DNA of 64,000 nucleotides, taken from the NCBI GenBank assembly GCA_963599995.1, contig CAVCAX010000060.1, positions 37,372 through 101,371 on the forward strand, written 5' to 3'. Below are positions 42,374-62,264 of the stretch, piece by piece. How positions within the stretch are numbered: the first letter of the stretch is position 1; every line of letters starts with the position of its first letter. A model generated the notes under the pieces. That model was not told where the DNA came from. It searched no databases and saw only the letters and a program-made list of their open reading frames with translations. Both the position numbers and the translations under genes were made by a program. This DNA comes from Coprobacillus sp. CAG:698 (GTDB lineage: Bacteria; Bacteroidota; Bacteroidia; Bacteroidales; Bacteroidaceae).

Positions 42374-42480
42374 TTGAACCTTTCCAATAGCGGACTTTCA
42401 ATAGCAAGCGTTCAAGACAAGTTTCAATAGTACGGCTTTAACAGCAAACTTTTAACTGCAACTTTTCAACTTTTCAACTG

Positions 42481-43725: not shown

Positions 43726-44513
43726 GTTGGGATTTGTTCGGGCTGTTTGCAGCAGTCTCTCTTTGTCTTTGGGCGGTTGGGGCCGTTAGCGCCTGGAAAG
43801 GCAAACCGATGAGCAGGGTATTAGGCTTTACGTTGGCAGGGTTGCTTGTCTTCTTCAGCTTTATCCTGGGTATGTGGATTGCGTTAGAGCGTCCGCCGAT
43901 GCGTACGATGGGGGAAACCCGTTTGTGGTACTCTTTCTTCTTGCCGCTGGCAGGCATTATCACCTATGTCCGCTGGCGTTATAAGTGGATATTAGGCTTC
44001 AGCTTCGTATTGTCATTGGTATTTATCTGCATTAATCTTTTTAAACCCGAAATTCATAACAAAACGCTGATGCCGGCTTTGCAAAGTCCTTGGTTCGCAC
44101 CGCATGTCATCGTATATATGTTTGCCTATGCCATGCTTGGGGCAGCTGCGGTGATGGCGGTTTATCTGCTATGGATAAAGAAGAAACCGGCGGCCGAACG
44201 GGAAATGGAACTTTGCGACGAGCTGGTGTATGTGGGACTTTCGTTTATGACTTTGGGGATGCTTTTCGGTGCTTTGTGGGCAAAAGAGGCCTGGGGACAC
44301 TACTGGAGCTGGGACCCGAAAGAGACATGGGCAGCCGCCACGTGGATAGGGTATCTGTGTTACATCCACTTCCGGCTTCATCGACACAGAAGCCATCGCA
44401 AGGCGCTTGTCGGATTATTGGTCTGCTTTCTTTTACTTCAAATGTGTTGGTATGGCATCAACTACCTGCCTTCGGCACAAGGAACGAGCGTACATACTTA
44501 TAATTTAAACTGA
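43722..44513 (+). CDS. ccsA: Cytochrome c biogenesis protein CcsA/ResC
   Basis: PALQSPWFAPHV, WWD motif WAKEAWGHYWSWDPKETW, C-terminal SVHTY. Start at ATG 43722. Confidence 0.93.
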   Translation: MSWDLFGLFAAVSLCLWAVGAVSAWKGKPMSRVLGFTLAGLLVFFSFILGMWIALERPPMRTMGETRLWYSFFLPLAGIITYVRWRYKWILGFSFVLSLVFICINLFKPEIHNKTLMPALQSPWFAPHVIVYMFAYAMLGAAAVMAVYLLWIKKKPAAEREMELCDELVYVGLSFMTLGMLFGALWAKEAWGHYWSWDPKETWAAATWIGYLCYIHFRLHRHRSHRKALVGLLVCFLLLQMCWYGINYLPSAQGTSVHTYNLN

Positions 44514-44519
44514 TATAAT

Positions 44520-45788: not shown

Positions 45789-45839
45789 GAATGTAACTGA
45801 AAAAGAACTATTTTTGCCATATAACCAAAGAGTAATGTT

Positions 45840-46547
45840 GTGGTAAGAATCGATTTTACAGATGAGTATAAACAACTGCCATGGCAGATACCTCTTTTCC
45901 GGGACTTGGATATGAATGTGAAGCGTCGTTTAATGGACGAACTTGATGTTGTATTGTACAAAGTGTCCCGAAAAGAGGTGGTGCTGCAACAAGATACGCG
46001 TTGTAACCATTTGTATGTGTTGCTGAAAGGTGAATTGGAGGTTAATATCATCGATGTAGCCGGCAATCAGGTAAAGGTCGAGGAGATTATCGCTCCCCGC
46101 GCCTTCGCTACTCCGCATCTGTTTGGCGGGAATAATATTTTGCCGGCCACTTTTACTGCAAGCAAGGAGTCTGTTCTTCTGATGGCTACCCGCTCTTCGG
46201 TTTTCAAGCTGCTAAGCTCCGTGCCGCAGCTTCTTCACAGCTTTCTTTGTGTGACAGGCAACTGTAACAAATGCACCATTACCCGTTTGCGTATTCTCTC
46301 TTATAAAAATCTCCGCAGCCGTTTTATTTATTATCTCATGGAGCATTGTACCTCCGGCTATACGGCATTGTTAGAGCATAACCAGGCACAATTGGCCGAG
46401 TATCTGGGAGTTACCCGTCCGGCTCTCTCGAAGGAAATCAATAAGATGATAAGGGAAGGGCTTATCTCTGCGGATAAGCGGGAGGTTACACTGCTGGATG
46501 TGCAAGGGCTGATGGATATTCCCCCTCGAACCTCTTCCGAGAAGTAG
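45840..46547 (+). CDS. Crp/Fnr family transcriptional regulator (HcpR-like)
   Basis: cNMP-fold LYVLLKGEL; HTH QAQLAEYLGVTRPALSKEINKM..EGLI. -7 box TATTTTTG at 45809-45816. Confidence 0.9.
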   Translation: MVRIDFTDEYKQLPWQIPLFRDLDMNVKRRLMDELDVVLYKVSRKEVVLQQDTRCNHLYVLLKGELEVNIIDVAGNQVKVEEIIAPRAFATPHLFGGNNILPATFTASKESVLLMATRSSVFKLLSSVPQLLHSFLCVTGNCNKCTITRLRILSYKNLRSRFIYYLMEHCTSGYTALLEHNQAQLAEYLGVTRPALSKEINKMIREGLISADKREVTLLDVQGLMDIPPRTSSEK

Positions 46548-46580
46548 CGGGATGGATATTCTTCATCGAACCTCTTCCGA
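46511..46580 (+). repeat. 30-bp direct duplication of the regulator gene's 3' end
   Basis: 46511-46540 vs 46551-46580, 27/30 identical. Confidence 0.85.
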
Positions 46581-46616
46581 TAGGATAGATGAGGCAGCTT
46601 AACGGGAAGAGGGTGG

Positions 46617-46723
46617 AAAACATGTAGCATCTTTCAGAAAAAGACTTAACGTCCTTCGGAAAAAGACTTAGCATCTTTCAAAAAAACATATAGTATCTTT
46701 AAAAAAAAGACTTAATGTCTTTT
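46617..46723. repeat. Five degenerate ~21-22-nt tandem units (AAAAAGACTTAGCATCTTTC-like)
   Basis: Seen directly; each unit is weakly palindromic (AAAGA...TCTTT). Confidence 0.8.
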
Positions 46724-46758
46724 CATGGGCATGAGATAATGCCTTTATCCGATCTGTT

Positions 46759-46994
46759 TTTACCCCTTTCACCTCCTTCACCTTTTTCCATCAAAGTCTT
46801 TATCCATCGCAGATACAGGGTGAAAGCCCGCTCGGAACGGTACTTATGAACCGTGAATACGGTTTTCACGGATTATGGGCACAGTCGTCACCGACAGTCT
46901 GTACGGTGCTTGGCAAGACGGAGTGCCCTTTCACCCTCTATTGCCGATGAATAAGCCGATCGGGCAAAAAGGTGAAGGGGGTGAAAGGGGTAAA
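46759..46994. mobile_element. 236-bp palindromic MITE/REP-like element
   Basis: 29-bp terminal inverted repeats, 28/29 complementary (TTTACCCCTTTCACCTCCTTCACCTTTTT); a second imperfect inner inverted repeat around AGGGTGAAAG/CTTTCACCCT. No transposase. Confidence 0.6.
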
Positions 46995-47020
46995 TTTATC
47001 TCCAAAATGACTCGTTTTAC

Positions 47021-47202
47021 GGAATTCCGCTACTTTTCGCCTTTCATGGAATTCCGGTGTTTCCGCCTTTCATGGAATTCTGCTACTTCCTGCTTTCATG
47101 GAATTCTGCTACTTCCTGCTTTCATGGAATTCCGCTACTTCCTGCTTTTAACGGACTTCCGGAACTTTCAACTTATCATGGATTTTCGGTAGTTCCCGCT
47201 TT
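47021..47202. repeat. 26-27-bp tandem array (six units plus the murQ 3' end)
   Basis: Consensus GGAATTCYGCTACTTCCTGCTTTCAT; units start at 47021, 47048, 47074, 47100, 47126, 47153, 47180. Confidence 0.9.
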
Positions 47203-48003
47203 GTAAGCATCTACCGCTTTTTTGACAGAACCATGCATCAGCAGCAATGTTTTTGCCTGATCGTAATCCAGTCCGAGTTCCTCAACAATCATGCGCGTGC
47301 CACGGTCTACCAGTTTCTGGTTACTAAGCTGCATATTAACCATTTTATTGCCTTTTACACGTCCTAACTGAATCATAACGGAAGTGGTAATCATGTTCAG
47401 AATCATTTTCTGACCGGTACCCGATTTCATGCGGGAACTTCCGGTCACATATTCCGGACCGACAATCATTTCGATGGGGACATCGGCTTCTGCGGCCATC
47501 GGAGAATCCGGGTTGCTGGTGATACAACCGGTCAGAATGCCATGTTCCCGTGCGGCATGCAATGCTCCGATAACGTAGGGGGTGGTACCTGAGGCAGCAA
47601 TGCCGATCACGGTATCCTTATCGTTAATGTGGTGTTCTACCAGTTCTTCCCATCCCCGTCGGGTGTCGTCTTCAGCGTTCTCTACCGGGTTGCGGAGAGC
47701 GGTGTCACCTCCGGCAATCAGTCCGATGACCAATGTCGGCGGCATACCGAATGTCGGTGGAATCTCCGAAGCGTCGAGCACGCCCAAACGACCGCTCGTG
47801 CCGGCTCCCATGTAGAAAATGCGTCCCCCTTGTTTCATGCGCGGAACAATCAGGCTTACCAACTTTTCTATTTGCGGAATCGCTTTCTGTGTGGCAAGGG
47901 CTACTTTCTGATCCTCTGTATTGATGTCTTCCAGAATCTCCCGGATAGACTTCTTCTCTAAATCGTTGTAGAGCGAAGGTTGCTCTGTTATCTTGATGAA
48001 CAT
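47176..48003 (-). CDS. murQ: N-acetylmuramic acid 6-phosphate etherase
   Basis: GAGTSGRLGVLDASEIPPTF, ENAED, GIAASGTTPYV, GPEYVTGSSRMKSGTGQK, SNQKLVDR. Confidence 0.97.
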   Translation of the reverse strand: MFIKITEQPSLYNDLEKKSIREILEDINTEDQKVALATQKAIPQIEKLVSLIVPRMKQGGRIFYMGAGTSGRLGVLDASEIPPTFGMPPTLVIGLIAGGDTALRNPVENAEDDTRRGWEELVEHHINDKDTVIGIAASGTTPYVIGALHAAREHGILTGCITSNPDSPMAAEADVPIEMIVGPEYVTGSSRMKSGTGQKMILNMITTSVMIQLGRVKGNKMVNMQLSNQKLVDRGTRMIVEELGLDYDQAKTLLLMHGSVKKAVDAYKAGTTENP

Positions 48004-48088
48004 GTTGTGATTTATAAATAATAACTGATGAATAATAATTGATAATAACCGATAAATACCGTCTGAATACTGATTGATAAATGATGCT

Positions 48089-48925
48089 TTACGACTGATG
48101 AAAAGTCATGAGCCCTTGCATGGGGCTTTTGACGATGGTTGTTATCTGTATCCCCCATTCACGGGCGGCTTCGCGCAGCACGTCCTGGTAGTGATAGGCC
48201 ACGGAGCCGATGAAGTGAATCGGATGATTCCTGTAATCGTATTGCATGACGTTGCGCTGGAAGAAAGCCTTGAAGCTGCCGAGAACCAACGCATGTACAG
48301 AGGGTTCCTGAATGTTTTCCGCCAGAAATGGAGAAAGACTTGCCAGGAAACGGTTGGGGAACGGCTGCCGGTACACCCGGTCGATGATTTCGGGAGGGGT
48401 CAGTCCGGTCTTATGCAGGAATTTCTCTTTCAATTCCGGGGTCATCTGGTTTTTCAGTATGTCGCCTACCAGGAGCTTCCCCAATACGGCACCACTGCCT
48501 TCGTCGCCAAGAATGAATCCCAACGGCGAAACGTTGCTTACTATTTTTTCACCGTCGTAGAAACAGGAATTGGACCCCGTGCCTATGATACAGGCAATGC
48601 CCGGTTGATGTCCGCACAGTCCACGGGCCACGGCAAGCATGTCCGTGTTCACTTCAATGCCGTTGGGGGCATCGAGTTGTGCGGAGAGTGCATGGTGCAT
48701 CATCGGCACCTTATCCGGAACACAGCCGGCGCCATAAAAATAAACAGCATCGGGCACGTTCGTTCCTAAATGAGGAAGCAGTGCCGTAGCAATCTCATTC
48801 TCTATCTCTTCCTCAGATTGAAAGAAAGGGTTCATCCCTTTGGTAACGATTTGCCGGACGAGCTGTCCTTGCTCTACCATACACCAATCGGTCTTTGTAG
48901 AACCGCTGTCTGCTATTAATATCAT
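48089..48925 (-). CDS. BadF/BadG/BcrA/BcrD-family amino-sugar kinase (MurK-like MurNAc kinase)
   Basis: LIADSGSTKTDW, FYGAGC, ACIIGTGSN, LGDEGSG, FIGSVA; adjacent to murQ. Confidence 0.85.
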   Translation of the reverse strand: MILIADSGSTKTDWCMVEQGQLVRQIVTKGMNPFFQSEEEIENEIATALLPHLGTNVPDAVYFYGAGCVPDKVPMMHHALSAQLDAPNGIEVNTDMLAVARGLCGHQPGIACIIGTGSNSCFYDGEKIVSNVSPLGFILGDEGSGAVLGKLLVGDILKNQMTPELKEKFLHKTGLTPPEIIDRVYRQPFPNRFLASLSPFLAENIQEPSVHALVLGSFKAFFQRNVMQYDYRNHPIHFIGSVAYHYQDVLREAAREWGIQITTIVKSPMQGLMTFHQS

Positions 48926-50085
48926 ATCTTTATATATATTTTTTTCTTATACAATACGTAACCGATGCTCCAGTTGATAGCGATAAAGAGGAGCGCAAAT
49001 GCCAGTGAACCGGGATAATCGCCCAAGAACGGTTGGAGAATGGCTTTGTAAATATAGCTATGCAAGTTGGTAAGCGCCCCTTCGAACGGAACACGGAGGT
49101 TATCCGATAAAGAGGCAAGTATACCGGCCATGACATAGATGAAAAGCGGGTTTACACCGAACGATTCGAAGAAACGGCACCAAGACTTGTAGCCTTTTAC
49201 GTCGATGATCCAGATGAGTAATGCCAGAAAGCTGGAACCCAATCCACAGGTGACAATGGCGAAAGTGGGCGACCATATTTTCTTGTTGATGGGGCATCCG
49301 TAGCTGAGCAGGAAGCCCAGGAATGTCAGGATTGTTCCGATGAGGAACAGCCGCTCGAGTTTCTCGTTGATGTCTTTTACCTCCATCAGCAGTTTGCCTA
49401 CACAAAAGCCAATCAATACGTGGGCGATGGCAGGGATGGTACTTAACAACCCTTCCGGATCGATCCCGTTGTCGTTGTACATGTGCGCTTCACCTAACAC
49501 GGCACGGTCTACGACTGAAAGTATATTGGTACTGTTGTACTCGAATCCGTTACCGGTGACGAGCAGGATGAAGTAACCTGCCAGCAGGGTCACAATCAGG
49601 TAGGGGATGTACTTGTGTTTCAAGGTCAGGGCAACGATGGCCGTCGCTCCATAGCAGAGTGCCAGGCGCTGCATGACTCCTAAAATACGGATGTGGTCGA
49701 ATGTCCAGACGGACTGTCCGAGGCGGGAGAAGAACGGGATATCCTCGGTCGACAAGGAGCACCAGGTGCGGCAGAACATGGAGAACCATGCAAGCGCCAA
49801 TCCGATGGCGAAAATAACGATGGTGCGCTTGAGAATTTTCAGAGCGGCGGAGCGGCTGAATTCAAAATTGTATTTCCTGAGAGAAATGTAGGTCGATATT
49901 CCCATGATAAACATGAAAAAGGGAAATACGAGATCGGTCGGCGTCAAGCCGTTCCATTGGGCGTGTCTCAATGGTGCGTAGACATACGACCATGATCCGG
50001 GGGTGTTCACCAAAATCATTCCTGCAATGGTGATGCCTCTCAGTATGTCGAGGGCTAAGAGGCGTTTACTGGTTGTTTTATTCAT
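48922..50085 (-). CDS. NagX/HGSNAT-like multi-pass membrane protein (MurT-like candidate MurNAc transporter)
   Basis: RLLALDILRGITIAGMILVN.PG, HAQWNG.TPTDLVFPFF, GVMQRLA, DPEGLLST, PINKKIWS. Coupled to the kinase by an ATGA overlap. Confidence 0.82.
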   Translation of the reverse strand: MNKTTSKRLLALDILRGITIAGMILVNTPGSWSYVYAPLRHAQWNGLTPTDLVFPFFMFIMGISTYISLRKYNFEFSRSAALKILKRTIVIFAIGLALAWFSMFCRTWCSLSTEDIPFFSRLGQSVWTFDHIRILGVMQRLALCYGATAIVALTLKHKYIPYLIVTLLAGYFILLVTGNGFEYNSTNILSVVDRAVLGEAHMYNDNGIDPEGLLSTIPAIAHVLIGFCVGKLLMEVKDINEKLERLFLIGTILTFLGFLLSYGCPINKKIWSPTFAIVTCGLGSSFLALLIWIIDVKGYKSWCRFFESFGVNPLFIYVMAGILASLSDNLRVPFEGALTNLHSYIYKAILQPFLGDYPGSLAFALLFIAINWSIGYVLYKKKIYIKI

Positions 50086-50112
50086 TTTAGGTAGTTTTTA
50101 TGTGTTAAGTTT

Positions 50113-53052
50113 TCAGTTTGAACGACGGGGGGTGGTACATTCGTCTACGAGGTAGGCGATGGATACGTAGGTTACCCCTGTGTGGGTAGCCAGCCCTATT
50201 TCGCAGGTGCGGCTGTTGGAATATCCGGTCTGTACGCCTGCCTTTTCCAGTTGGGGGCGTAGCTTACGCAGTGCATAGCCGTTCACCTCCGGATGTGTGA
50301 ATCCTTTGTCTCCTGCAAAGCCGCAGCATCCCACCTCTTCGGGCACGATCACCCGGGTGGAGCATAGCCGTGCCAGAGAAAGGAGGGTGTCCGCCAATCC
50401 CATCCGGCGCATGGAGCAGGTGATGTGGATGGCTACCGGGCGGTCGACCGGGCAGAATTCCAACTTGTCGCGCAGGAAGGTATAGATAAACTCGGCCGGT
50501 TCATAGAGCTTCATCTTCCGGATGGTCTCACGCATGCGGTGCAGGCAGGGACTTTGGTCGCAGAGCACGGGGTATTTTCCCTCTTCGGAAGCCTCCCACA
50601 AGGCTTTTTCCAGTTCCGCCGATTTACGGTCGGCAATATCCGGCATGCCTTTGCTCTCCCAGATTGTGCCGCAGCAGAGTTTCTCCATCTCTTTCGGGAA
50701 GATCACTTCGTATCCGGCCTTTTGCAGGAGCGATAACATCTTGTCCACGAGTGGCTGTTTCTCTCTGGATTTCTTGGGAAGTCCCATCGTCTGATTGATA
50801 CAGCTCGGAAAATAAACGACCTTGTTTACCTGAAAGTCCTGTCTCTGTTGGGAGTTCTCCCTTTTCTTGTTGCTCTTGTTCTTGTAGCTCTTGGGCATGA
50901 AAGGAGTCCATTGCGGGATACCCAACAGATGATGCATTCCCGTCGTGAGGGTAAGCATTGCCGATGTGCCTAAAACGGTGTGCGCTGCATTGGCTAAGGT
51001 CAGCATAGGCCGCAGGCTGCTTTTTATACCGGCAAAGTGGTTGGCGGCAAAGTTGCCAATGGAGTAGGCGAAGCTGCCTTCCGGTAATTCCTGCTGACGG
51101 ATATAATGAGTCAGATCGCCCGTGTTGATTCCCATCGGGCAAGAGGTAGAGCAGAGACCGTCGCCGGCACAGGTCTGATTGCCGGGGTAGCGGTATTGCT
51201 TCTGCAAGGTTGCCAGTCTTTGGGGATCTTCACCGCTGGCTTTGAGGCGGGAGATTTCGCGCTGCAGCACGATGCGTTGGCGCGAAGAAAGGGTGAAACC
51301 GCAAGTCACGCAGTTCACTTCGCAGAAACCGCATTCGATGCACTTGTCTATCTTGCTGATGTCCGGCGTGCTCTTGCTGCTATCCGATGTGCTTTTACTG
51401 CTATCCGGTACACTCTTGCTGTTGCCCTCCGCTTGCCGATGAGAGCTGCCTAATAGTGGCAACGGCTTGAAATTCTTGATGTGGCAGTGAGGATCATCGT
51501 TGAAGATAACTCCCGGATTGAGTATATTCAGTGGGTCGAAGAGCGTTTTGACGGCTTGCATCAGGCGATACGCTTTCTCTCCCCATTCGTATTTTACGAA
51601 CGGAGCCATGTTGCGTCCGGTGCCGTGTTCTGCTTTCAGCGAACCGTCATATTTGTCTACTACCAAAGTCTTGACGTCATTCATCAGTGCCTCGTAGCGC
51701 TTGACTTCTGCCTCCGTACCGAAAGACTGGTTGATGATGAAATGATAATTACCTTCGAGGGCATGCCCGTAGATGCAGGCGTCATCGTATCCGTGGCGCG
51801 CTATCAGCTGTTGCAGGTCGGCGGTCGCCTCGGGCAGATCCTCGATGTGGAAGGCCACGTCTTCGATGAGGCTCGTGGTTCCCGGTTTCCGGGTTCCCCC
51901 TACGGAAGGGAATATGCCGGAGCGGATGGCCCAGTATTTGGAGTATTCCTCCGGCTTGTCCGTAAAGTGAACGGGGGTGTAGGTATTGAAAGGTTTCAGC
52001 GCTTCTTCTATGACGGTGATATTGGCGGCCAGCTCTTCTTTGCTGTGCGCTTTGGTCTCTGCCAGTACGGCGGTGAGGCCTTCGCCTGTCGGGTCATCGA
52101 CCGATGCCAGTGATTTCCAGTCGAGCAGCTCGGCGCCTTTCACAATCCATTCCTTCTTTTCGTTGGTCAGTCTCTTCAAGGCCACTACCGCCCGGCATGC
52201 CTCTTTGATCTCCTGGAAATAGAGCATGGCGCTGGCCTTGTACGGATAGTCGTATTCAGTGCGCATGGTGACTTCGGAAAGAAATGCCAGCGTTCCTTCC
52301 GATCCCACCATTAAGTGGGTGATGATGTCGAACGGGTCGTCGAATGTGACGAAAGGCAGTAAGTTCAATCCCGTTACGTTCTTGATAGAATATTTATAGC
52401 GGATCCGGTCGCTGAGTTCTTTGTCGGCACGGATCCGGTCGCGCAGCGATTGGATCTGTTTGATAAACTCTCCGTGCGTCATTAGGAATTCCTGTTTGCT
52501 GGCATCGTTGCCGGTGTCGAGCAGAGTGCCGTCTGCCAGTATGATACGGGCAGACAATAGCATCTTATCGCTGTTGGCATGCGTTCCGCAATTCATACCG
52601 GAAGCGTTGTTCATCACGATGCCGCCTATCATGGCACTTTTTACCGAGGCCGGATCCGGGGCGAATTTACGTCCGAATGGTCGCAGCAGTTCGTTGACAC
52701 GCTGTCCGATGATGCCGGGTTGCATGGTAATCCGGTCGTGGTCGGGAGAGATGCTGTATTTCTCCCAGTTCTTTCCGGCTATAATGAGAATGGAGTCGCT
52801 GATGGCTTGTCCGGACAGGCTCGTTCCGGCTGCCCGGAAGGTCACCGGTAACCGGTGCCGGGTTGCCGAACGCAATAAATCCGTTATCTCCTGTTCGTTG
52901 GCCGAACGAATGACAATCTGGGGAATAAGCCGGTAGAAACCGGCATCCGTTCCCCATGCCAGCCGACGTAATTCGTCAGTGTAGATTCTTTCTTGCGGGA
53001 TAAACCGTGAGATTTCCTGCAGAAAGGCCTGGTATTTATTCTTCTTATCCAT
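50113..53052 (-). CDS. FAD- and Fe-S-binding oxidoreductase, D-lactate dehydrogenase (Dld-II type)
   Basis: FRAAGTSLSGQ, PDPAS, NNASG, GSEGTL, GHALEGNYHF, KAEHGTGRN, LNPG; CIECGFCE..C and C..DGLCSTSCP clusters; CCG domains. Confidence 0.85.
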   Translation of the reverse strand: MDKKNKYQAFLQEISRFIPQERIYTDELRRLAWGTDAGFYRLIPQIVIRSANEQEITDLLRSATRHRLPVTFRAAGTSLSGQAISDSILIIAGKNWEKYSISPDHDRITMQPGIIGQRVNELLRPFGRKFAPDPASVKSAMIGGIVMNNASGMNCGTHANSDKMLLSARIILADGTLLDTGNDASKQEFLMTHGEFIKQIQSLRDRIRADKELSDRIRYKYSIKNVTGLNLLPFVTFDDPFDIITHLMVGSEGTLAFLSEVTMRTEYDYPYKASAMLYFQEIKEACRAVVALKRLTNEKKEWIVKGAELLDWKSLASVDDPTGEGLTAVLAETKAHSKEELAANITVIEEALKPFNTYTPVHFTDKPEEYSKYWAIRSGIFPSVGGTRKPGTTSLIEDVAFHIEDLPEATADLQQLIARHGYDDACIYGHALEGNYHFIINQSFGTEAEVKRYEALMNDVKTLVVDKYDGSLKAEHGTGRNMAPFVKYEWGEKAYRLMQAVKTLFDPLNILNPGVIFNDDPHCHIKNFKPLPLLGSSHRQAEGNSKSVPDSSKSTSDSSKSTPDISKIDKCIECGFCEVNCVTCGFTLSSRQRIVLQREISRLKASGEDPQRLATLQKQYRYPGNQTCAGDGLCSTSCPMGINTGDLTHYIRQQELPEGSFAYSIGNFAANHFAGIKSSLRPMLTLANAAHTVLGTSAMLTLTTGMHHLLGIPQWTPFMPKSYKNKSNKKRENSQQRQDFQVNKVVYFPSCINQTMGLPKKSREKQPLVDKMLSLLQKAGYEVIFPKEMEKLCCGTIWESKGMPDIADRKSAELEKALWEASEEGKYPVLCDQSPCLHRMRETIRKMKLYEPAEFIYTFLRDKLEFCPVDRPVAIHITCSMRRMGLADTLLSLARLCSTRVIVPEEVGCCGFAGDKGFTHPEVNGYALRKLRPQLEKAGVQTGYSNSRTCEIGLATHTGVTYVSIAYLVDECTTPRRSN

Positions 53053-53122
53053 TTTTATTTATATAAACAATCATTTTCTAAACAATCATTTTCAGACAAT
53101 TCCCGGAAGCATGAATACTTTT

Positions 53123-54418
53123 TCAGTACCGGGCATCAGCACCGCTCTCTTTTTTGCCATAGTCCGGATCGATCTTGATAAGTGCGCAAACGGCTATGGT
53201 GGCGGCACAGCAGATCATTACCCAGATAAAGAACTTCTCGTATCCGATGATCTCCTGCAACCACCCCGCCATCATACCCGGCAACATCATGCCCAGCGCC
53301 ATGAATGCGGTACAGATGGCATAATGTGCTGTCTTGTGCTCACCGTCGGAATAATAGATCAGGTAAAGCATGTAAGCCGTGAAACCGAATCCGTATCCGA
53401 ACTGCTCGATAAATACGCAGATATTGATTGTGAGAAGATCCTGTGGCTGGAAATATCCCAGATAGACAAAGGTAATGCAGGTGAGCGAGATGCTCCATGC
53501 CATTGGCCATAGCCATTTCTGCAATCCGCCTTTTGCCGCGCAGATGCCGCCGATGATTCCTCCGAGAGTGAGTCCGATGATGCCGATGGTACCGTATACC
53601 CAGCCTACTTCGGCCGTGCTCAGTCCTAACCCGCCTTTTTCAATGGGGTCGAGCAGAAAAGGGTTGATGAGCTTTACCAATTGTGCTTCCGGCAAGCGGT
53701 AGAACAGCATGAACAAGATGGCAATTCCGGCTTGCGGCTTGCGGAAGAAGCTTGCGAAGGTGGCAAAGAACTCTTTGAACAGGTTATTGGCAGTAACATT
53801 GCCCACGGCCGGCTTGTCGGATGCCGGATGGGGCAACAGGTAGCTGTGGTATAGATAGAATGCGATGAAGAGCCCTGCGAGGATATAGAACGTGATGCTC
53901 CACGCCATGGCTATGGTGGAAGTGCGCTTTTCCAGTTCGCCGGCCAGTACGACCAGAAGCCCTTGTCCGGCTATTGTGGCAATCCGGTAAAAGGTGCTTC
54001 GGATGCCGACATACATTGCTTGGTCCCGGACGCTTAATGCCAGCATGTAGAACCCGTCGGCGGCTATGTCGTGCGTGGCCGAACTGAAGGCAACCAGCCA
54101 GAATATGGCGAGGGTTGTCCGAAAGAAATCGGGCATCGGGAGGGTGAAAGCGATGCCGGCAAGTCCTGCTCCCACCAGGAGCTGCATGGTCACTACCCAC
54201 CAGCGTTTGGTTTTCAGCAGGTCGATAAAGGGGCTCCAGAATGGCTTGATAACCCAGGGGAGGTACAGCCAGCTGGTATATAGGGCGATGTCCGTGTTGG
54301 AGATGCCGAGCTTTTTGTACATGATGACAGAGATGGTCATCACGGCTACGTAAGGCAGACCTTGTGCAAAGTACAGGGTCGGTATCCAGGCCCACGGAGA
54401 CAGTTCTTTGTTTTTCAT
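53123..54418 (-). CDS. ampG: AmpG-family MFS muropeptide permease
   Basis: LYFAQGLP, LPWVIKPFWSPFID, SATHDIAADG. Start placed at MKNKELSPW. Confidence 0.85.
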   Translation of the reverse strand: MKNKELSPWAWIPTLYFAQGLPYVAVMTISVIMYKKLGISNTDIALYTSWLYLPWVIKPFWSPFIDLLKTKRWWVVTMQLLVGAGLAGIAFTLPMPDFFRTTLAIFWLVAFSSATHDIAADGFYMLALSVRDQAMYVGIRSTFYRIATIAGQGLLVVLAGELEKRTSTIAMAWSITFYILAGLFIAFYLYHSYLLPHPASDKPAVGNVTANNLFKEFFATFASFFRKPQAGIAILFMLFYRLPEAQLVKLINPFLLDPIEKGGLGLSTAEVGWVYGTIGIIGLTLGGIIGGICAAKGGLQKWLWPMAWSISLTCITFVYLGYFQPQDLLTINICVFIEQFGYGFGFTAYMLYLIYYSDGEHKTAHYAICTAFMALGMMLPGMMAGWLQEIIGYEKFFIWVMICCAATIAVCALIKIDPDYGKKESGADARY

Positions 54419-54431
54419 GATACAGGTCTGT

Positions 54432-55862
54432 TTAATATAATTTCTCAATAGCGGCACCGGTATAATAGTGCAGCAATATTTCGTTGTAAGTATACCCCTG
54501 TTCGCCCATAACGGCGGCACCTATCTGACAAAGTCCGACGCCATGCCCCCAGCCGGCACCTGTGAGAATGAATTTTCCGGGGATGCCGTCTTTAATTCCG
54601 GCTTTGTCCACGACGAACGCCGAACTGTATAAATGCGAAGGAGACAGGGTTCTCCGGATTTCCAATTCCTTGCCGATGATGAACGTCCTTTTCGTTCCGA
54701 TGATTTTCAACTTGGAGATACGGGCGGAGGTGCCGCGTTCGATAGGAATCAGGTCTATGATCTGTCCGTAGTCGATGCCGGAACGTTGGAGAATCAGTGC
54801 GGCAAGCTCTTCCTGCGTATATTCCACTCTCCAACGGTAAAAATCGGTGGTCTCCTGATCGTAATTGTTCAATACCTGACTGAGTATTCTCTTTTCTTGG
54901 GTATGGCAGAAGGCTTCCGGATAGTTTCGTATCCACTTCTCTGCTTCCGAATGGATGCGTAAGTCGGGGAGGAAAGTCGTTTTTTGGCTGTCCCGCCGTC
55001 CGACAAGGTAGGGGTGTCTTACATCTTCCCAGCAGTATTGAAACTCTTCGAGGGCTCCTCCGCAACATTTTGAGAAGCGGGCATCGCAGATTTTGTTGTC
55101 GAAAGTCAATACCTGCCCCCGGGTGGCTTGGACCGCTTGTGCCACGTTTTCAGTGGTTGCCCGGGTTATTCCTTGGTAGCGCTGGCAATGGTCGTCGGCG
55201 CATACGTCAAAGTGTGCGTGATCTTCCCGGTCGTACCATTTGATTCGTTCCGTCTTTACCTGTTCCGGTTCTTCTGTTTCTGTATTCGGTTGCCCGGGCT
55301 TTTCATTCTCCGCTTTTAGCTGTTTACTCTTTTCTTTTTTAGCTTCCAACTGATAGAGCAACCAGCTGCGTGAAATGACGGCATGGGCTTTCAACAGCTC
55401 CGGAGAGGCGGTCGCACTCATCTCCGAGGAGATGACACTGGTTAGATAATCTTCTATGCGGATGACATTGATGGCAGTTATCTTTTCATCTTCTACAATG
55501 AATTTCAGTGCTCCGTGAAAACGTTGGTTCTCTTTGCGTTCCCAATGGAAATGGATGCCGATTGTTACATCTGACAGTTCGAAAGAACCGGTCTCTTCCT
55601 GCAGAGGTTCAAACAGCAATTCATCGTAACGGTTGTTTTGCCAGAGAATCTTTCCGTTGTCAAAAAGAACAGATTGCTTTCCGGCAACTTCTTTATCATT
55701 GACGCATTTAGAAACTCTTTCACCGTTGACACTTCCGAGAACTTCTTTATTGTTGGCGTTTCCGGAAACTCTTTCATGGATGACGCGATAAGGCTCCGGA
55801 AAAGTAAACTCTATTCGGGTCTCGGACAGGATGCCGACATGTATCTCAGGCTCTTTCATCAT
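54432..55862 (-). CDS. SpoIID/LytB domain protein (lytic transglycosylase-like)
   Basis: EDYLTSVISSEM, LKAHAVISRS, DVCADDHCQRYQG, AV.ATRG, GAGWGHGVGLCQIGA, ILLHYY. Confidence 0.92.
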   Translation of the reverse strand: MMKEPEIHVGILSETRIEFTFPEPYRVIHERVSGNANNKEVLGSVNGERVSKCVNDKEVAGKQSVLFDNGKILWQNNRYDELLFEPLQEETGSFELSDVTIGIHFHWERKENQRFHGALKFIVEDEKITAINVIRIEDYLTSVISSEMSATASPELLKAHAVISRSWLLYQLEAKKEKSKQLKAENEKPGQPNTETEEPEQVKTERIKWYDREDHAHFDVCADDHCQRYQGITRATTENVAQAVQATRGQVLTFDNKICDARFSKCCGGALEEFQYCWEDVRHPYLVGRRDSQKTTFLPDLRIHSEAEKWIRNYPEAFCHTQEKRILSQVLNNYDQETTDFYRWRVEYTQEELAALILQRSGIDYGQIIDLIPIERGTSARISKLKIIGTKRTFIIGKELEIRRTLSPSHLYSSAFVVDKAGIKDGIPGKFILTGAGWGHGVGLCQIGAAVMGEQGYTYNEILLHYYTGAAIEKLY

Positions 55863-55899
55863 TGTTCTTTTAGACGTTTATAACTGTTCCTTTATCAGT

Positions 55900-56838
55900 T
55901 CACAATTGCTCTTTTATACGTTGTCTCAGTTTGCGAAACTCTTCCTTGCCAAGACAGACCTCTTCGAGTATGGATGCGACATCTGCTGCCGTCAGCTTTT
56001 CAAAATCTTTTTCCTGCGGAGTGATGAATACACCTCCCATATCTACGGATGCCGGACTGATGAGGATATTGGCATCTCCGGTTGCCGCATAGCAGGCCGG
56101 GCGGTGCTTGGCGCGTGGAAAGATACAAACCGTCCATCGGCTGTTCTCTGTCCATGCAAGAATGTTCATCATGGGTTCGTCTTCTCCCGGTTTGAGTTCC
56201 ATGGCGTTGTATATCACGTTGAACAGTGCGATGGCGTCTTCCCGTTTTCCGGCGTCTATCATCAAGGTTGCCCGTGGTGCGTCATCCAAATAAGAGAGAG
56301 AGGCTGTCTTGTGGGCGATGATCTCTCCGGCTTTCTTGTTTCTCCACTCTTGTTCGATCGGGAGAAAACCTTTACTTCCGGCCTGAAAATGAGCATGGTC
56401 GGGAGCAGAGGCACCACACCAGGGACCGTTGTAAAAAACGATATATTCTCCGGCAACAGCCGCCAGATCGAGCATGTCTCCGAAACGTCCTTTTATACGT
56501 TGGTCCACGTGCTCTGATGTCGGAATGGTGAGGTGCTTCGGGAATATCGGAAACGGGTTAACCAGTATCTGATAATTATCTTTGAATGGAATTCCTTTTT
56601 GCCGGGTCGGACGGTTGGCGGGGCAAAGAAAACATTTCCGCTCCTGTATGGATCGGGCATCGACTTTGGCGGCCGAAGAGACAATGCGTGCGGAATTAAA
56701 CTGTACTTTGTAACGTATCCCGTTTACATTCAGTTCTTTGGTCCTTACCCGGTCCAATGCGGCATAATTGTTCCTTGCCAGCTCCCACGTAGCGAGTTGG
56801 TCGGTTAGCAAATGTTCTATTCTTTGTTGGGTATCCAT
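55900..56838 (-). CDS. DUF4922-like protein (HxHxQ nucleotidyltransferase/phosphorylase fold)
   Basis: QFNSARIVSS, CFLC..NRP, LVNPFPIF..HLTI, YNGPWCGASAPDHAHFQ, SPASVDMGG. Confidence 0.78.
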   Translation of the reverse strand: MDTQQRIEHLLTDQLATWELARNNYAALDRVRTKELNVNGIRYKVQFNSARIVSSAAKVDARSIQERKCFLCPANRPTRQKGIPFKDNYQILVNPFPIFPKHLTIPTSEHVDQRIKGRFGDMLDLAAVAGEYIVFYNGPWCGASAPDHAHFQAGSKGFLPIEQEWRNKKAGEIIAHKTASLSYLDDAPRATLMIDAGKREDAIALFNVIYNAMELKPGEDEPMMNILAWTENSRWTVCIFPRAKHRPACYAATGDANILISPASVDMGGVFITPQEKDFEKLTAADVASILEEVCLGKEEFRKLRQRIKEQL

Positions 56839-56958
56839 TTTACTGCTTTCGGTTTGGTGTCTTTCTTGCTCTTCCTGGTTTGGTATCTTTCTTGCTGTTT
56901 CCGGTTTGGGTATCCTTCTCCCTTTCCCCGGTTGGAGTCATCTGTCTTCCTGTTTCGG
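56829..56958. repeat. ~26-bp degenerate tandem repeats bridging the GT2 end and the DUF4922 start
   Basis: Minus-strand units resembling CCGGAAACAGCAAGAAAGATACCAAA, about five copies. Confidence 0.7.
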
Positions 56959-58416
56959 GCAGCGGTTCATGGCGATGCGCGCCTGTAATTCCCAAGTACG
57001 GATCCGGTCTTTATACAAGTTGTGTCCGTTCATTTTTACAATATCCAGCGAAGCGTCGGAGTTATCGTCCCAACGGCGGCACAGATATACTACTTCGTAG
57101 ACACGGCCTATCTGATACCGGCGGGAGAGGTTGAGCCCGAGGGCATAATCTTCTCCATAGCTGGTGTTGGGGAGATTGAACTCTCGCAGCACCGGTGTGT
57201 AAAAAGCACGTGGAGCGCCCAGACCGTTAATACGCAGGGCATTGTTGCGTCCATTTTCGGGTGTCCATTCTTTGTGATCGATGATGCCCGGGGCGATCCT
57301 GTTCAGGTGGAAATCCGTCATCATGTAGGTGCCTACCACCATTGCACAGTTTTGTTCGTAGAATGCACGGATCATTGTCTTTAGGGTATTTTCGTCCTTA
57401 TACACATCGTCACTGTCCAATTGTACGGCGAATTTTCCGCATTTGTCATGGTGCACTCCGAGATTCCAACAGCCGCCGATGCCTAAGTCGTCGCGTTCGG
57501 GCAGGATGTGGATGAGGCGGTCGTCGGATGCGAATTCACGAATCGCCTCTGTTGTGCCGTCAGTGGAGTGGTTGTCGATGACGATGAGGTTGAACTTAAA
57601 GTCTGTCTTCTGGTTTAATACCGAACGGATGGCATCTCTGATGGTACGGATGCGGTTGCGTACCGGAATAATGACAGAGGCTTCGTACTCAAAACCGGCA
57701 TTGTCGAATTCTATCTTCCGGAAGTTGGGTGCCAGATAGCCGCCTATCTCTTTCAGATGCTCGGTGCAGGCCTGCTCCATCTCGATTTGTACTCCACGGT
57801 TTTTGGGGTCTACGTAATCGAATATTTTCTCACCGCTTTTTCGGGTATCGTTTTCTACTTCCGAGTAAAGGTACTCGTTGATGTGGACCAGTGATTCTTT
57901 TTGCGAGAGTTTCAGCCGCAGGTCGTACAGCCCGGCAAATCGGTAGTCGGCTTTCATGCGGGCGGCGGCTTCCTGCAGGGCGCTTGCTCTGTACAGCAAA
58001 ACCGATCCGAAGTTGAAATCATCGCGGAGACTGCCCAACTGGTAATCTATCACGGGTGCATCTTTCCGGATCCCTTCTGATACTTGGTAATGATCGGCGT
58101 ATACCATGCCGGCACCACTGTCTTCTGCTATGCGGACCATGCGCTCGAGAGCAAACATGCCCAGTTGCAGGGTGGTGTACTTCGTATAAAGCAGGGTGTA
58201 GCCGGCATTGGAGTGGGTTGCCATCGCATGTATGGTGGCAGTGGCATTGAGTGCCGGTACATGCAGAAGCCGGCATCCCCGGAGAGGGACAGCCGTGGTT
58301 TCCGTCGTTAACAGGTATATCTCTTTTACCAAGTCTGATGACTTCAAACCCTGTATGGTCTTTTCGGCCTGTGCCGCATCGGCAAAAGGAATGAAGCAGT
58401 TGATCGTAGCCTTCAT
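56938..58416 (-). CDS. Glycosyltransferase family 2 protein with an extra N-terminal GT-A-like region
   Basis: SVIIPVRN, IDNHSTDGT, QLDSDD (DxD), YGEDY. Confidence 0.88.
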   Translation of the reverse strand: MKATINCFIPFADAAQAEKTIQGLKSSDLVKEIYLLTTETTAVPLRGCRLLHVPALNATATIHAMATHSNAGYTLLYTKYTTLQLGMFALERMVRIAEDSGAGMVYADHYQVSEGIRKDAPVIDYQLGSLRDDFNFGSVLLYRASALQEAAARMKADYRFAGLYDLRLKLSQKESLVHINEYLYSEVENDTRKSGEKIFDYVDPKNRGVQIEMEQACTEHLKEIGGYLAPNFRKIEFDNAGFEYEASVIIPVRNRIRTIRDAIRSVLNQKTDFKFNLIVIDNHSTDGTTEAIREFASDDRLIHILPERDDLGIGGCWNLGVHHDKCGKFAVQLDSDDVYKDENTLKTMIRAFYEQNCAMVVGTYMMTDFHLNRIAPGIIDHKEWTPENGRNNALRINGLGAPRAFYTPVLREFNLPNTSYGEDYALGLNLSRRYQIGRVYEVVYLCRRWDDNSDASLDIVKMNGHNLYKDRIRTWELQARIAMNRCPKQEDR

Positions 58417-58418
58417 AT

Positions 58419-59876
58419 TCAGTCTCTTGTTTTATTTTTCTTAATCAGTAGGCAAAGTCCTATAAAAGTGAACAATGCGTTGAATATCAGCAGTTCGTAG
58501 CTGAACTGGTATCCGTTGAACCATTTTTCCGAATTCTCCTGCAAAATAAAACAAAGAATGGGAGATGCAATGGCTACTATGGGGATATATTTGTCGCGGA
58601 CTTGTTTCTTGGTGAAAATACCAAAAGCAAAAAGCCCTAAAATCGGACCGTAGGTATAACTGGCCAGAATGTAGACGGCATCGATTACACTGGTGTTGTT
58701 CAGCAGGTTGAATACGAAGATGACAATACCCATGGTGACAGCCATGCCGATGTGTACACGTTTGCGTATCTTCACCAGTTCGTTCTCTGCCTTGTTTTTT
58801 GCTCCCAGTATGTCTACTGTGAAAGAGGTTGTCAGGGCAGTCAATGCCGATCCGGCTGCCGAATAAGCGGACGAAATAAGTCCGATGATAAACAGCACGC
58901 CCACTATGGCGGGGAAATAACCGCCGGTAGCTATCATCGGGAATAATTCATCGCTCTTTGCGGGGTTCTCGATGCCGTGTTGTGCGGTAAATGTGTATAG
59001 CAGCACTCCTAACATGAGGAACAGCAGGATGATAAAGAACTGGGAAATGCCGCTGGTGATCATATTCTTCTGTGAATCTTTGAAATTCTTACAGCTTAAA
59101 TTGCGCTGCATCATATCCTGGTCCAACCCGGTCATTGCAATCATTGTGAACACACCTGCCAGAAACTGCTTGAAGAAGTAGCGCTTGTCATTCACGTCAT
59201 CGAAAAAGAACATACGGGAAAGGTCATTCTCGGAGATGGCGGTCAGCATGCCCCCGAAGCTCAGCTTAAGATCGGAAGCGATGTAATAGATGCATAAAAC
59301 CACGGATACAACCAGACAGAAGGTCTTCAGCGAATCAGTCCATATCAATGATTTTACGCCGCCGCGGAATGTGTAGAGCCAGACAAGTGCTACGGTGATA
59401 GTGACATTCAGAATAAACGGAAGATGGAACGGCTCGAACACTAACAGTTGCAGGGTAAGGCAAACCAGGAAGAGCCGCACGGCCGCTCCTAACATTTTGG
59501 AGATGAAAAAGAACCAGGCACCGGTCTTGTAGGAAGACAGACCGAACCGGTTCTCCAGATATTCATAAATGGATACCAAATTCATCCGGTAGAAAAGCGG
59601 TATCAGGACAAAGGCAATAATGATTTGTCCTGTGACGAAGCCGAGCACCATCTGCAGATAGGAGAATCCGCTGGCAGCTACCATGCCCGGGACGGACACA
59701 AAGGTTACTCCGGATATGCTGGAGCCGATCATGGCAAAGGCCACTACATACCAGGCCGATTTACGGTTTCCGACAAAGAAACCTTCATTGTCGGCTTTCC
59801 TGCCTGCGATGTATGAAACCGTAAACAGGATAATGAAATACGCTACGATTGTGATTAAAATAGAAACTGGAGTCAT
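58419..59876 (-). CDS. Sodium:solute symporter (SSS) family transporter
   Basis: FFVGNR, ISGVTFVSVPG, SIYEYLENRF, GGVKSLIWTD, GLDQDMMQR. -7 box TATCTTTG at 59965-59972. Confidence 0.93.
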   Translation of the reverse strand: MTPVSILITIVAYFIILFTVSYIAGRKADNEGFFVGNRKSAWYVVAFAMIGSSISGVTFVSVPGMVAASGFSYLQMVLGFVTGQIIIAFVLIPLFYRMNLVSIYEYLENRFGLSSYKTGAWFFFISKMLGAAVRLFLVCLTLQLLVFEPFHLPFILNVTITVALVWLYTFRGGVKSLIWTDSLKTFCLVVSVVLCIYYIASDLKLSFGGMLTAISENDLSRMFFFDDVNDKRYFFKQFLAGVFTMIAMTGLDQDMMQRNLSCKNFKDSQKNMITSGISQFFIILLFLMLGVLLYTFTAQHGIENPAKSDELFPMIATGGYFPAIVGVLFIIGLISSAYSAAGSALTALTTSFTVDILGAKNKAENELVKIRKRVHIGMAVTMGIVIFVFNLLNNTSVIDAVYILASYTYGPILGLFAFGIFTKKQVRDKYIPIVAIASPILCFILQENSEKWFNGYQFSYELLIFNALFTFIGLCLLIKKNKTRD

Positions 59877-60145
59877 GCGGTCATTTATAATTTAATGATT
59901 GGTGATTCATGAAGGGGAGATTGTCTTTTCATAATGTGTTATATCAAAGGAGGTTCTTTGTCTGCAAAGATAATGTATGATTTAATATTGAAAACATATA
60001 TTTTTATATTTTTAGAATTATAATCAATATTTTGCACGCCTATGCTTCGCGTTTGAGGAGGTGACAGGTAGGTGGAATGTGTATTTCCGTAAGGGTGGCC
60101 GGTGTGGCAGAAGCTATTGGGACCGGGGCGGTTATGCCGGTTCGT

Positions 60146-60994
60146 TTACAGCTCTTCCATGTTCATAGAATGAAACTCTATGAGTCCGTTCATGGGTGTT
60201 TCCTCTATGATATTCAATTCGACTCCAAAGCCTTTGGCCACTTCCCTCAGTATCTCGGAATAATGATAGGCGACTGAACCGATAAAACGGATAGGGTAGC
60301 TTTTATAATCATATTGGCATACATTGCGGGTAAAAAAGTTCCTTAAATTATTTATCAGTAATTCGTAGACATATTCATTATCCAGATAATCTGCAAGAAA
60401 ATAAGAAATGGTAGCCAAAAAACGATTGGGGAACGGCAGGTTGTAGACTGATTCCATCGCATCGTCTGCTGTGATACGAAATTTGTCGTAAAAATCAGCC
60501 GTGATATCTTTGGGAGCCAGTCCTTTTAATGCATCGGAAAGAAATAGCTTGCCCAAGACAGCCCCGCTGCCTTCATCGCCCAGGATGTAACCGGCGGCTT
60601 TTACGTTTTTAACAATGATTTTGCCGTCATAAAAACAAGAATTGGAACCGGTGCCTAAAATGCAGGCTATTCCTGCGTCGCATTTGAACAGGCCGCGTGC
60701 CGCCGCCAACAGATCGCTTTCAACTTGAATCGGGGTCTTGAACTGTGCAACCAATGAAGCTCCCAGGATATTCTTCTTTTCGTTGGAGGTACAGCCGGCA
60801 CCATAATAATAAACCTGCTCCAGTTTTCTTTTGAAGAAAGATGGGGGGAGTCCGAGCCTGACGCTCCGGCTTATTTCTCTTCTGGTTTGGAAAAAAGGAT
60901 TCAAACCTTCCGTGAAAGCTCTTTGGATAAGATGATTATCTTCAATCAGAGCCCATTCTGTCCTTGTAGAACCACTTTCTGCGATAAGTTTCAT
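60146..60994 (-). CDS. Second BadF-family amino-sugar kinase paralog
   Basis: LIAESGSTRTEW, GLNPFFQ, YYGAGC, ACILGTGSN, LGDEGSG. Own -7 box TATATTTG at 61023-61030. Confidence 0.85.
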   Translation of the reverse strand: MKLIAESGSTRTEWALIEDNHLIQRAFTEGLNPFFQTRREISRSVRLGLPPSFFKRKLEQVYYYGAGCTSNEKKNILGASLVAQFKTPIQVESDLLAAARGLFKCDAGIACILGTGSNSCFYDGKIIVKNVKAAGYILGDEGSGAVLGKLFLSDALKGLAPKDITADFYDKFRITADDAMESVYNLPFPNRFLATISYFLADYLDNEYVYELLINNLRNFFTRNVCQYDYKSYPIRFIGSVAYHYSEILREVAKGFGVELNIIEETPMNGLIEFHSMNMEEL

Positions 60995-61164
60995 TTCCCG
61001 ACTTGCTTTTTAGATTTGGATACAAATATATGATTTTCTTTGCAATGCTCCATTCTCATACTGAAAGAAAATCGCAGTAGGGTACTTAATGATTTTGAGG
61101 ACGGTTGCGTCGGGCTGGAACTGTCGGTGTGCTGTCTGCCACAGGGAGGTAGGGTATGTGAATA

Positions 61165-61207
61165 AGAAAGTCACCTCTGCTACAGAGGTCTGTGACAGAG
61201 GTGACTT
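61165..61207 (-). terminator. Terminator hairpin downstream of asd
   Basis: AAGTCACCTCTG...CAGAGGTGACTT stem followed by a T-rich tail on the minus strand. Confidence 0.7.
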
Positions 61208-61253
61208 CGGATGAATAATACTTTCGGATAAACAATACCTTCAGCCGGTGTTC

Positions 61254-62264
61254 TTATCCTACATTCTTTTCTTTAATCAGGTATTCGGCAATCTGCACGG
61301 CATTCAGTGCGGCGCCTTTCTTTATCTGATCGCCTACAATCCAGAATGTCAGTCCGCAATCGTTGGTCAGGTCTTTGCGGATACGGCCTACATACACAGG
61401 GTCTTTACCGGCAAGGAACAGCGGCATCGGGTACTCCTTCTCGGCCGGGTTGTCTTTCAGGACAAGACCCTCGCCTTTGGCAAATGCCTCGCGGGCTTCT
61501 TCTACCGAAACAGGACGCTCGGTTTCCACCCAGATGCTTTCGGAGTGTGCTCTCAATGCCGGAACACGCACGCAGGTAGCGCTGACTTTGATGTCCGAGT
61601 GCATGATTTTACGGGTCTCATTGTACATCTTCATCTCTTCCTTGGTATATCCGTTTTCTGTGAATACGTCAATTTGAGGAATCAGGTTGAATGCCAATTG
61701 ATAAGCGAATTTTTCTACCGTAACAGGTTCGTTAGCGAGTACCTGGCGGTATTGTTCGTAAAGTTCGGCCATAGCTGCTGCGCCGGCACCGCTGGCTGCC
61801 TGGTAAGTGGATACATGCACGGTTTTTATGTGTGAGAGCTGTTCGATGGCTTTCAATGCAACTACCATTTGGATGGTGGTGCAGTTGGGGTTGGCGATGA
61901 TACCGCGCGGGCGGTCCTTGGCATCGGCGGCATTCACCTCAGGTACCACCAAAGGTACATCGTTGTCCATGCGGAAAGCGCTGGAATTATCGATCATCAC
62001 AGCACCGTATTTGGTGATGGTTTCTGCGAATTCCTTAGACGTACCTGCACCAGCGGATGTGAAAGCAATGTCTACCCCTTTGAAGTCATCATTGTGTTGT
62101 AAGAGTTTGACCTCGATCTGTTTACCGCGGAAGGTGTATTTGCTTCCGGCACTGCGTTTAGAGCCGAACAAAACTAACTCGTCCAACGGAAAATTTCTTT
62201 CATCGAGCACGCGCAGGAACTCTTGTCCTACGGCTCCGCTTACGCCAACAATAGCTACTTTCAT
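61254..62264 (-). CDS. asd: Aspartate-semialdehyde dehydrogenase
   Basis: [63 protein letters not shown]. True start at 62264, with -7 box TAATTTTG at 62333-62340. Confidence 0.97.

Follow-up and report, generated by a model that had tools for sequence, protein, structure and literature searches.

A question of lactate

When the N-acetylmuramic acid (MurNAc) of the bacterial cell wall is broken down, a simple matter of accounting arises: what becomes of its lactyl half? The etherase MurQ splits MurNAc-6-phosphate (MurNAc-6P) into N-acetylglucosamine-6-phosphate (GlcNAc-6P) and D-lactate (PMC5790795, PMC6165865; these and the other papers are cited here for the accessible parts of their text). 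The question is raised by a minus-strand locus (47176-60994) in a 64,000-nucleotide stretch of DNA, hereafter the window, from contig CAVCAX010000060.1 of assembly GCA_963599995.1 (Coprobacillus sp. CAG:698, GTDB lineage Bacteroidaceae), where the gene of a FAD/Fe-S dehydrogenase, here dld, lies among the genes of MurNAc salvage. A sequence-only reading of this DNA had proposed that the dehydrogenase is a Dld-II-type enzyme capturing the lactate released by MurQ, and that the locus serves foraging on foreign cell wall. The data described below make it probable that the dehydrogenase oxidises D-lactate released by MurQ, and the gene content, the orthology of MurK and MurQ, the active-site residues, the synteny and the gene losses considered here are direct observations. 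The foraging claim, as will be seen, is not supported for this genome. The genes directly at issue are as follows.

50113..53052, minus strand: FAD/Fe-S 2-hydroxyacid dehydrogenase, 979 amino acids, Dld-II architecture (PF01565, PF02913, 4Fe-4S and CCG domains)
48922..50085, minus strand: NagX/HGSNAT-like membrane protein at the MurT position, about nine hydrophobic segments (PF07786; NF046061 127.4 vs 480, below cut-off)
48089..48925, minus strand: MurK, MurNAc kinase (phmmer match to T. forsythia MurK, 8oqw/8ow9, E 4e-121)
47176..48003, minus strand: MurQ, MurNAc-6-phosphate etherase (TIGR00274 312.8 vs 302 bits; PRK05441 over cut-off)

A predicted D-lactate dehydrogenase

The 979-residue protein, the sole copy in the genome, is a predicted D-lactate dehydrogenase, its stereospecificity being equally a prediction. 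The flavoprotein unit is present (FAD_binding_4, PF01565, 105.9 bits; FAD-oxidase_C, PF02913, 155.1 bits), and the same chain continues into a C-terminal 4Fe-4S dicluster domain (PF13183) and a cysteine-rich CCG domain (PF02754) with conserved cysteine motifs. By description, this is the layout, FAD-binding plus C-terminal 4Fe-4S, of the Dld-II enzymes S. oneidensis Dld-II, H. pylori HP1222 and C. jejuni Cj1585c (PMC4117512). Unlike these, the window gene sits in a cell-wall sugar operon, and in its genome (86.55% complete) no lactate permease, LUD domain or LutABC set was found.

The active site points in the same direction. Residues R377, H430, H437, E475 and H476 align with the catalytic R347, H398, H405, E442 and H443 of mouse LDHD (PMC10589216), and none of the 117 homologues compared departs from them; no active-site difference separates homologues that stand in differing gene contexts. 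The side pocket (F381, I396, I439) is hydrophobic, whereas D-2-hydroxyglutarate dehydrogenase (D-2-HGDH) has Thr, Lys and Asn at these positions and E. coli YdiJ has Arg at the last. In the structure model built from a 32-sequence alignment (pLDDT 87; a single-sequence fold of the catalytic domain, pLDDT 40, was not used), the fold is closest to mouse LDHD (TM 0.88 on target length), with A. woodii LctD and another D-lactate dehydrogenase also in the lead; human D-2-HGDH follows close behind, so that the substrate is not set by fold alone. A 21-nt three-copy repeat (51353-51421) encodes the stretch, modelled with low confidence, that links the flavin half to the Fe-S half.

YdiJ and mouse LDHD share with the window enzyme the fold and the metal/FAD ligands, and YdiJ also has an Fe-S extension, while mouse LDHD lacks Fe-S domains (PMC10589216). 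Identification of the window enzyme as a YdiJ-type D-2-hydroxyglutarate dehydrogenase was rejected on the score for NF049975 (147.7 vs 1350 bits), on an identity of 26% over 543 residues, about half of the length, and on Ile439 in place of Arg. Among the closer kin, the B. salyersiae orthologue is 89% identical, which places the host in Bacteroides, near that species. Used as a proxy for an assayed member, an Azospirillum copy standing in the order regulator, lactate permease, dld, lldEFG is 46% identical over the full length. In a FastTree phylogeny of 118 rows, two copies from lctP-lutABC operons (G114, G066) nest within the MurNAc-linked clade.

Conservation of the gene beside MurNAc genes

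If the dehydrogenase serves MurNAc catabolism, is its place in the genome conserved? In a genus sample of 120 Bacteroides genomes at least 90% complete (one 34% match, G386, was dropped), the dehydrogenase is present in 69 and murQ in 104; a B. thetaiotaomicron control genome gave no FAD-oxidase_C match. Of the 69 copies, 67 directly precede murT-murK-murQ, co-directional with murQ and with starts 3.9-5.4 kb upstream of it; the remaining two also belong to the cluster, G372 having its copy before murK and the other genome at the end of a contig. Because 67 of 69 copies are placed alike, the position beside murT-murK-murQ is not due to chance.

Wider samples retain the association of the two genes and loosen their arrangement. 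Among 120 genomes of the family, murQ is found in 23 of 24 carriers of the dehydrogenase vs 22 of 96 non-carriers; 15 of these 24 copies lie in the operon (2 of them cut by contig ends), 3 beside lactate genes, 4 in unrelated surroundings, 1 beside a NamZ fragment and 1 beside a MurU-like nucleotidyltransferase. In the best 80 of 212 GTDB loci, 5 of which repeat family-sample genomes, murQ lies within 10 kb in 50 and other cluster genes are near in 9 more. In an order-level sample of 220 genomes, murQ occurs in 17 of 20 carriers vs 30 of 200 non-carriers, and the canonical gene order is seen only in G003 and G245. Nevertheless, rearranged loci of other families still keep dld beside MurNAc genes: in G334 it lies behind SusC/SusD on the cluster's opposite arm, in G285, G149 and one G181 copy it adjoins a namZ, and in G686 it faces two kinases and murQ head to head. 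Where dld stands alone, murQ is present in all five such genomes examined. At the level of the phylum, the dehydrogenase is found in 45 and murQ in 212 of 300 genomes, both (counted by eye) in 43 of the 45; in the 30 for which both positions are listed, the genes are neighbours only in G245 and G686. Thus, among the genomes examined, dld-murQ linkage is confined to Bacteroidales.

A lactate permease scores over cut-off in 12 of 36 carriers and none does in the other 24; taken with its absence from the window assembly, this indicates an internal source of lactate. The predicted capture of MurQ lactate by a Dld-II-type enzyme has thus withstood comparison of architecture, active site, synteny, co-occurrence and kinship with copies in lactate operons.

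Several loci in relatives deserve mention for their own sake. In B. neonati and a relative (L096, L099), lctP-lutABC directly follows murQ and a PF00144/GDSL gene, joining the lactate operon to the MurNAc cluster. A second setting in cell-wall salvage is seen in two Prevotella-like genomes (L043:4205-7768, L116), where the dehydrogenase adjoins a MurU-like nucleotidyltransferase; L043 also has an AmgK-like kinase close by. In lactate operons, a protein of about 410 residues with no Pfam match, possibly an outer-membrane channel, is encoded between dld and lctP (L035:7057-8277) or between lctP and lutA (L156:4520-5755).

Composition of the locus

The sequence-only reading had described nine closely spaced co-directional genes and a second kinase upstream. 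All ten minus-strand open reading frames were recovered within the same limits and with the same families, separated by -4 to 99 nt from the SSS gene to murQ (successively 2, 99, 37, 13, 70, 27, -4 and 85 nt), with 269 nt between the upstream kinase and the gene of the sodium:solute symporter (SSS). Apart from the four genes listed above, the locus comprises the following features.

60146..60994, minus strand: sugar kinase, counterpart of T. forsythia K1058 (phmmer best match 8oqk/8ow7, E 2e-136)
59926..60036, minus strand: conserved promoter-like element, with TATCTTTG at 59965-59972 and a leftover namZ start, ATGAAAA, at 59926-59932
58419..59876, minus strand: SSS, substrate unassigned (PF00474 91.4 bits, over cut-off; same position in relatives)
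56938..58416, minus strand: GT2-fold protein at the position of T. forsythia 'gtf' (PMC5388701), no signal peptide by N-terminal hydropathy (PF00535 over cut-off)
55900..56838, minus strand: DUF4922 protein, Ap4A-phosphorylase-like, no signal peptide (PF16269 218 bits, over cut-off; weak PF19327)
54432..55862, minus strand: SpoIID/LytB-domain protein, no signal peptide (TIGR02669 172.6 vs cut-off 83.3; SpoIID Pfam over cut-off)
53123..54418, minus strand: AmpG-like MFS permease, start set at ATG 54418 (best family TIGR00901, 175.6 vs cut-off 350, below)

The names AmpG and NagX are given by best match and position, both proteins scoring below the NCBIfam cut-offs, and it is by position that the membrane protein at 48922..50085 is provisionally equated with MurT. 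The two kinases differ where it matters: MurK of the window, with the murQ gene next to it, keeps the S-P-L lactyl pocket described for MurK in PMC10465942, and the upstream kinase has K-A-A at these positions. The GT2, DUF4922 and SpoIID genes (54432-58416) travel together, all three without signal peptides, and the DUF4922 protein resembles Ap4A phosphorylases. In L031 (5527-7455), L033, L034, L036 and L138, AmpG has about 630-640 residues, an addition of about 200 to the 431-residue window form.

The short gaps and the single conserved upstream element suggest that the nine genes from SSS through murQ are likely one transcript; the K1058-like kinase gene, which has a TAnnTTTG box upstream at 61030, is probably transcribed on its own. 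Internal TAnnTTTG matches in ampG (53474) and murT (50018) were taken as chance. Scans for sigma-70 promoters and terminators gave about shuffle levels, the scan models being ill-suited to Bacteroides, and Rfam gave no match at gathering score in 46000-62000.

The element at 59926..60036 is promoter-like by the -7 consensus. It shares 90% identity over 111 nt with the B. salyersiae sequence that precedes namZ-a, and in many relatives namZ-a/SSS follows an AT-rich motif of about 75 nt whose end is TATCTTTG; a similar motif precedes susC in two of them (L179:5797-5865, L180:13979-14051). This promoter/operator-like motif before namZ-a/SSS and susC suggests one regulon, and recombination between two copies of it could explain the loss of susC/susD here.

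Comparison with known systems

The closest described system is that of T. forsythia, Tanf_08345-08385, which comprises xanthan-lyase-like, gtf, gtf, lytB, ampG, namZ1/ybbC, murT, murK and murQ genes with K1058 upstream (PMC5388701, PMC7670621, PMC10465942, bioRxiv 10.1101/2021.12.02.470905) and is one transcript by reverse-transcription PCR (PMC5388701). There, AmpG imports GlcNAc-(anhydro)MurNAc (PMC7670621), MurT is described as the MurNAc importer, and K1058 is a slow MurNAc kinase whose natural substrate is unassigned (PMC10465942). By analogy, the AmpG-like permease of the window likely imports GlcNAc-(anhydro)MurNAc fragments. The two loci share the core order gtf-gtf-lytB-ampG-...-murT-murK-murQ and counterparts of both kinases. 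However, the nine T. forsythia genes, as described in these sources, include no dehydrogenase, whereas the window locus has one in the place of namZ, lacks the lyase-like gene and the exported NamZ and has the SSS in addition; moreover, the window host has murA and hence, by that test, is not a MurNAc auxotroph. B. fragilis, too, is noted to have a cluster of this kind, one containing two NamZ genes (bioRxiv 10.1101/2021.12.02.470905).

The chemistry itself has a precedent. In Fidelibacter multiformis IA91, D-lactate from MurNAc-6P cleavage is stated to be oxidised to pyruvate by a D-lactate dehydrogenase (PMC11652737), the same reaction as envisaged here; that organism, however, belongs to another phylum and is a peptidoglycan auxotroph, and the accessible text gives neither enzyme type nor gene linkage. 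For mycobacteria, use of the lactyl moiety has been proposed (10.1101/312876, PMC13041923), and engineered C. glutamicum is described as accumulating D-lactate on MurNAc, so that such a dehydrogenase could help. The literature outside subscription journals and supplements yielded no published link of a Dld-II gene to the Bacteroidales operon; supplementary Tannerella locus figures could show a Bacteroides cluster with the gene.

A longer locus in relatives and its trimming in this lineage

B. ihuae, B. graminisolvens, B. fluxus, B. hominis and G115 have a longer form of the locus, ordered K1058-like kinase, SusC, SusD, namZ-a, SSS, Golvesin-domain, phosphoesterase-propeller, GT2, DUF4922, SpoIID, AmpG, namZ-b, dld, murT, murK, murQ and PF00144/GDSL gene. 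Of 8 relatives with upstream DNA examined, 5 have SusC/SusD next to the locus, as do G038, G334 and G380; B. salyersiae has a different SusC-like gene beyond the kinase, and a namZ in the locus. Absent from the window locus are susC/susD, namZ-a, namZ-b and the Golvesin-domain, phosphoesterase-propeller and PF00144/GDSL genes, and no orthologues of the missing exported genes were found in the incomplete assembly. By a hydropathy rule, which is not a predictor, the missing genes have hydrophobic, signal-peptide-like N-termini (score 2.3-3.7; retained soluble genes 0.4-1.5). An assembly artefact was rejected: the junctions are contiguous, the start-codon scar is present, and an independent assembly (L052) shows the identical trimmed order. 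The exported front end, that is, SusC/SusD, two NamZ and three other signal-peptide genes, is thus gone from the locus in this lineage, and what remains of the Bacteroidales MurNAc salvage locus in the window is its core of inner-membrane and cytoplasmic proteins. Many B. thetaiotaomicron-like genomes have yet another, short locus, with the transporters and with neither exported enzymes nor dld.

A polysaccharide utilisation locus is recognised by an adjacent SusC/SusD pair with exported glycan-degrading enzymes. The window locus lacks this hallmark.

Fate of MurQ lactate and alternative explanations

In the pathway that we consider probable, the dehydrogenase would turn MurQ-derived D-lactate into pyruvate and would pass the electrons to quinone; the genome has a fumarate reductase flavoprotein gene, and an NrfHA operon lies next door. 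The trimmed pathway would handle products of the cell's own wall turnover and small fragments freed by others: a locus without its exported front end is likely to serve such recycling rather than the digestion of foreign walls.

A number of observations weigh against this assignment of the dehydrogenase. It is absent from 36 of the 104 murQ-bearing Bacteroides genomes and changes state 11 times on the MurK-MurQ tree, and is therefore dispensable. G372 (93% complete) and a B. avicola metagenome-assembled genome keep namZ-sss-dld-murK with no murQ detected, neither murQ nor cluster genes are near in 21 of the 80 GTDB loci, and about 15 of the 20 order-level carriers have dld away from murQ; the co-occurrence counts are raw and ignore kinship. 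No NagA over cut-off was found in the 86.55% complete genome for the GlcNAc-6P half. The genome also has LdhA-like and (below cut-off) MgsA-like genes, two other sources of D-lactate, and these open the way to another explanation, namely, that the enzyme is a general scavenger of D-lactate, whether from fermentation (LdhA) or from methylglyoxal detoxification, and merely shares the operon promoter. The many homologues that stand alone or in lactate operons, together with the two genomes keeping the dehydrogenase with no detected murQ, would suit such a scavenger, which is nonetheless unlikely, given that 69 of 69 Bacteroides copies lie inside the MurNAc cluster, that the rearranged loci of other families retain the MurNAc neighbours and that dld outlasted the adjacent namZ-b, which was deleted in this lineage. 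The two roles can coexist.

We give still less weight to another substrate, be it L-lactate, glycolate or a longer hydrophobic acid, which would leave MurNAc use uncompleted. The close family member Cj1585c is reported as L-iLDH and L-specific (PMC4117512), mouse LDHD accepts many hydrophobic D-2-hydroxyacids (PMC10589216), and a 41% identical Alteromonas homologue lies among sugar-acid catabolic genes; yet the metal/FAD site equals that of the D-specific enzymes residue for residue, a LutABC set accompanies the copies in lactate operons, and the pocket residues for D-2-hydroxyglutarate are absent. Foraging on foreign cell wall by the window organism itself, which the sequence-only reading had derived from the three transporter types, is improbable as well, since three inner-membrane transporters also occur in the short loci without exported enzymes and since the exported genes of the relatives are missing. 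It is true that namZ-b accompanies dld in 65 of 68 murQ+dld genomes vs 5 of 36 murQ genomes without dld (31 of these 36 thus lack both), and that the incomplete genome has many SusC/SusD pairs and one NamZ with a signal peptide elsewhere. However, this only NamZ (C233) is a third paralogue, 45-49% identical to namZ-a and 35% to namZ-b, whereas the latter two are 78-87% alike to their own orthologues. A tie between dld and the exported enzymes was rejected, as the association is not significant after correction for kinship (median p 0.25 for independent pairs from a MurK-MurQ tree of 78 rows), and namZ-b is in any case the direct neighbour of dld. The presence of murA and the trimmed order in L052 also speak against foraging, as does the retention of the dehydrogenase while all exported genes of the locus were lost. 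Foraging suits the relatives' longer locus better.

With the lactate-oxidising role of the dehydrogenase in mind, a more sweeping scenario can be tentatively envisaged, although we hold it somewhat less likely to be right than wrong. The ancestral Bacteroidales locus would have been a peptidoglycan utilisation locus, with co-regulated SusC/SusD, two NamZ, other exported hydrolases, three inner-membrane transporters, MurK/MurQ and a respiratory D-lactate dehydrogenase, letting gut Bacteroides eat the walls of other bacteria for carbon and energy; it would persist in more than half of Bacteroides species, the B. thetaiotaomicron lineage having a short form without the dehydrogenase and the window lineage a stripped one, reduced to the lactate-burning core and living off fragments that others release.

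Taken by itself, the dehydrogenase step follows logically from chemistry already known. The present locus adds a count across the genus, a long form that includes SusC/SusD, and a lineage in which the dehydrogenase has outlasted every exported gene of the locus. A widespread unnamed Bacteroides 'FAD-binding and (Fe-S)-binding domain-containing protein' thereby acquires a testable function, and D-lactate oxidation would close the carbon balance of MurNAc catabolism. Many gut Bacteroides have the long form, complete with SusC/SusD and exported muramidases; together with the short form, which lacks the dehydrogenase, and the trimmed form seen here, it makes up a natural series, so that feeding of gut Bacteroides on peptidoglycan can be tested directly. 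Such feeding, if true, would bear on how bacterial cell wall, immune-active muropeptides and D-lactate turn over in the gut.

Neighbouring features

Downstream of murQ, at 46750-47000, lies a 250-nt element resembling a miniature inverted-repeat transposable element, with 29-nt terminal inverted repeats and matches on 21 contigs of the genome; it gave no plasmid or Rfam match. Tandem repeats of 26 nt and 22 nt border it, and those of 22 nt have matches on 37 contigs. Converging on murQ from the plus strand (40224-46547) are an NrfH-NrfA nitrite reductase operon, cytochrome c maturation genes, a porin-like gene and the gene of a Crp-family regulator; a Crp gene is also found downstream of the cluster in several relatives. 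Farther away, on the minus strand at 21092-24715, a GH3 enzyme fused to a putative glucoamylase domain (PF10091) is encoded downstream of a SusC/SusD pair.

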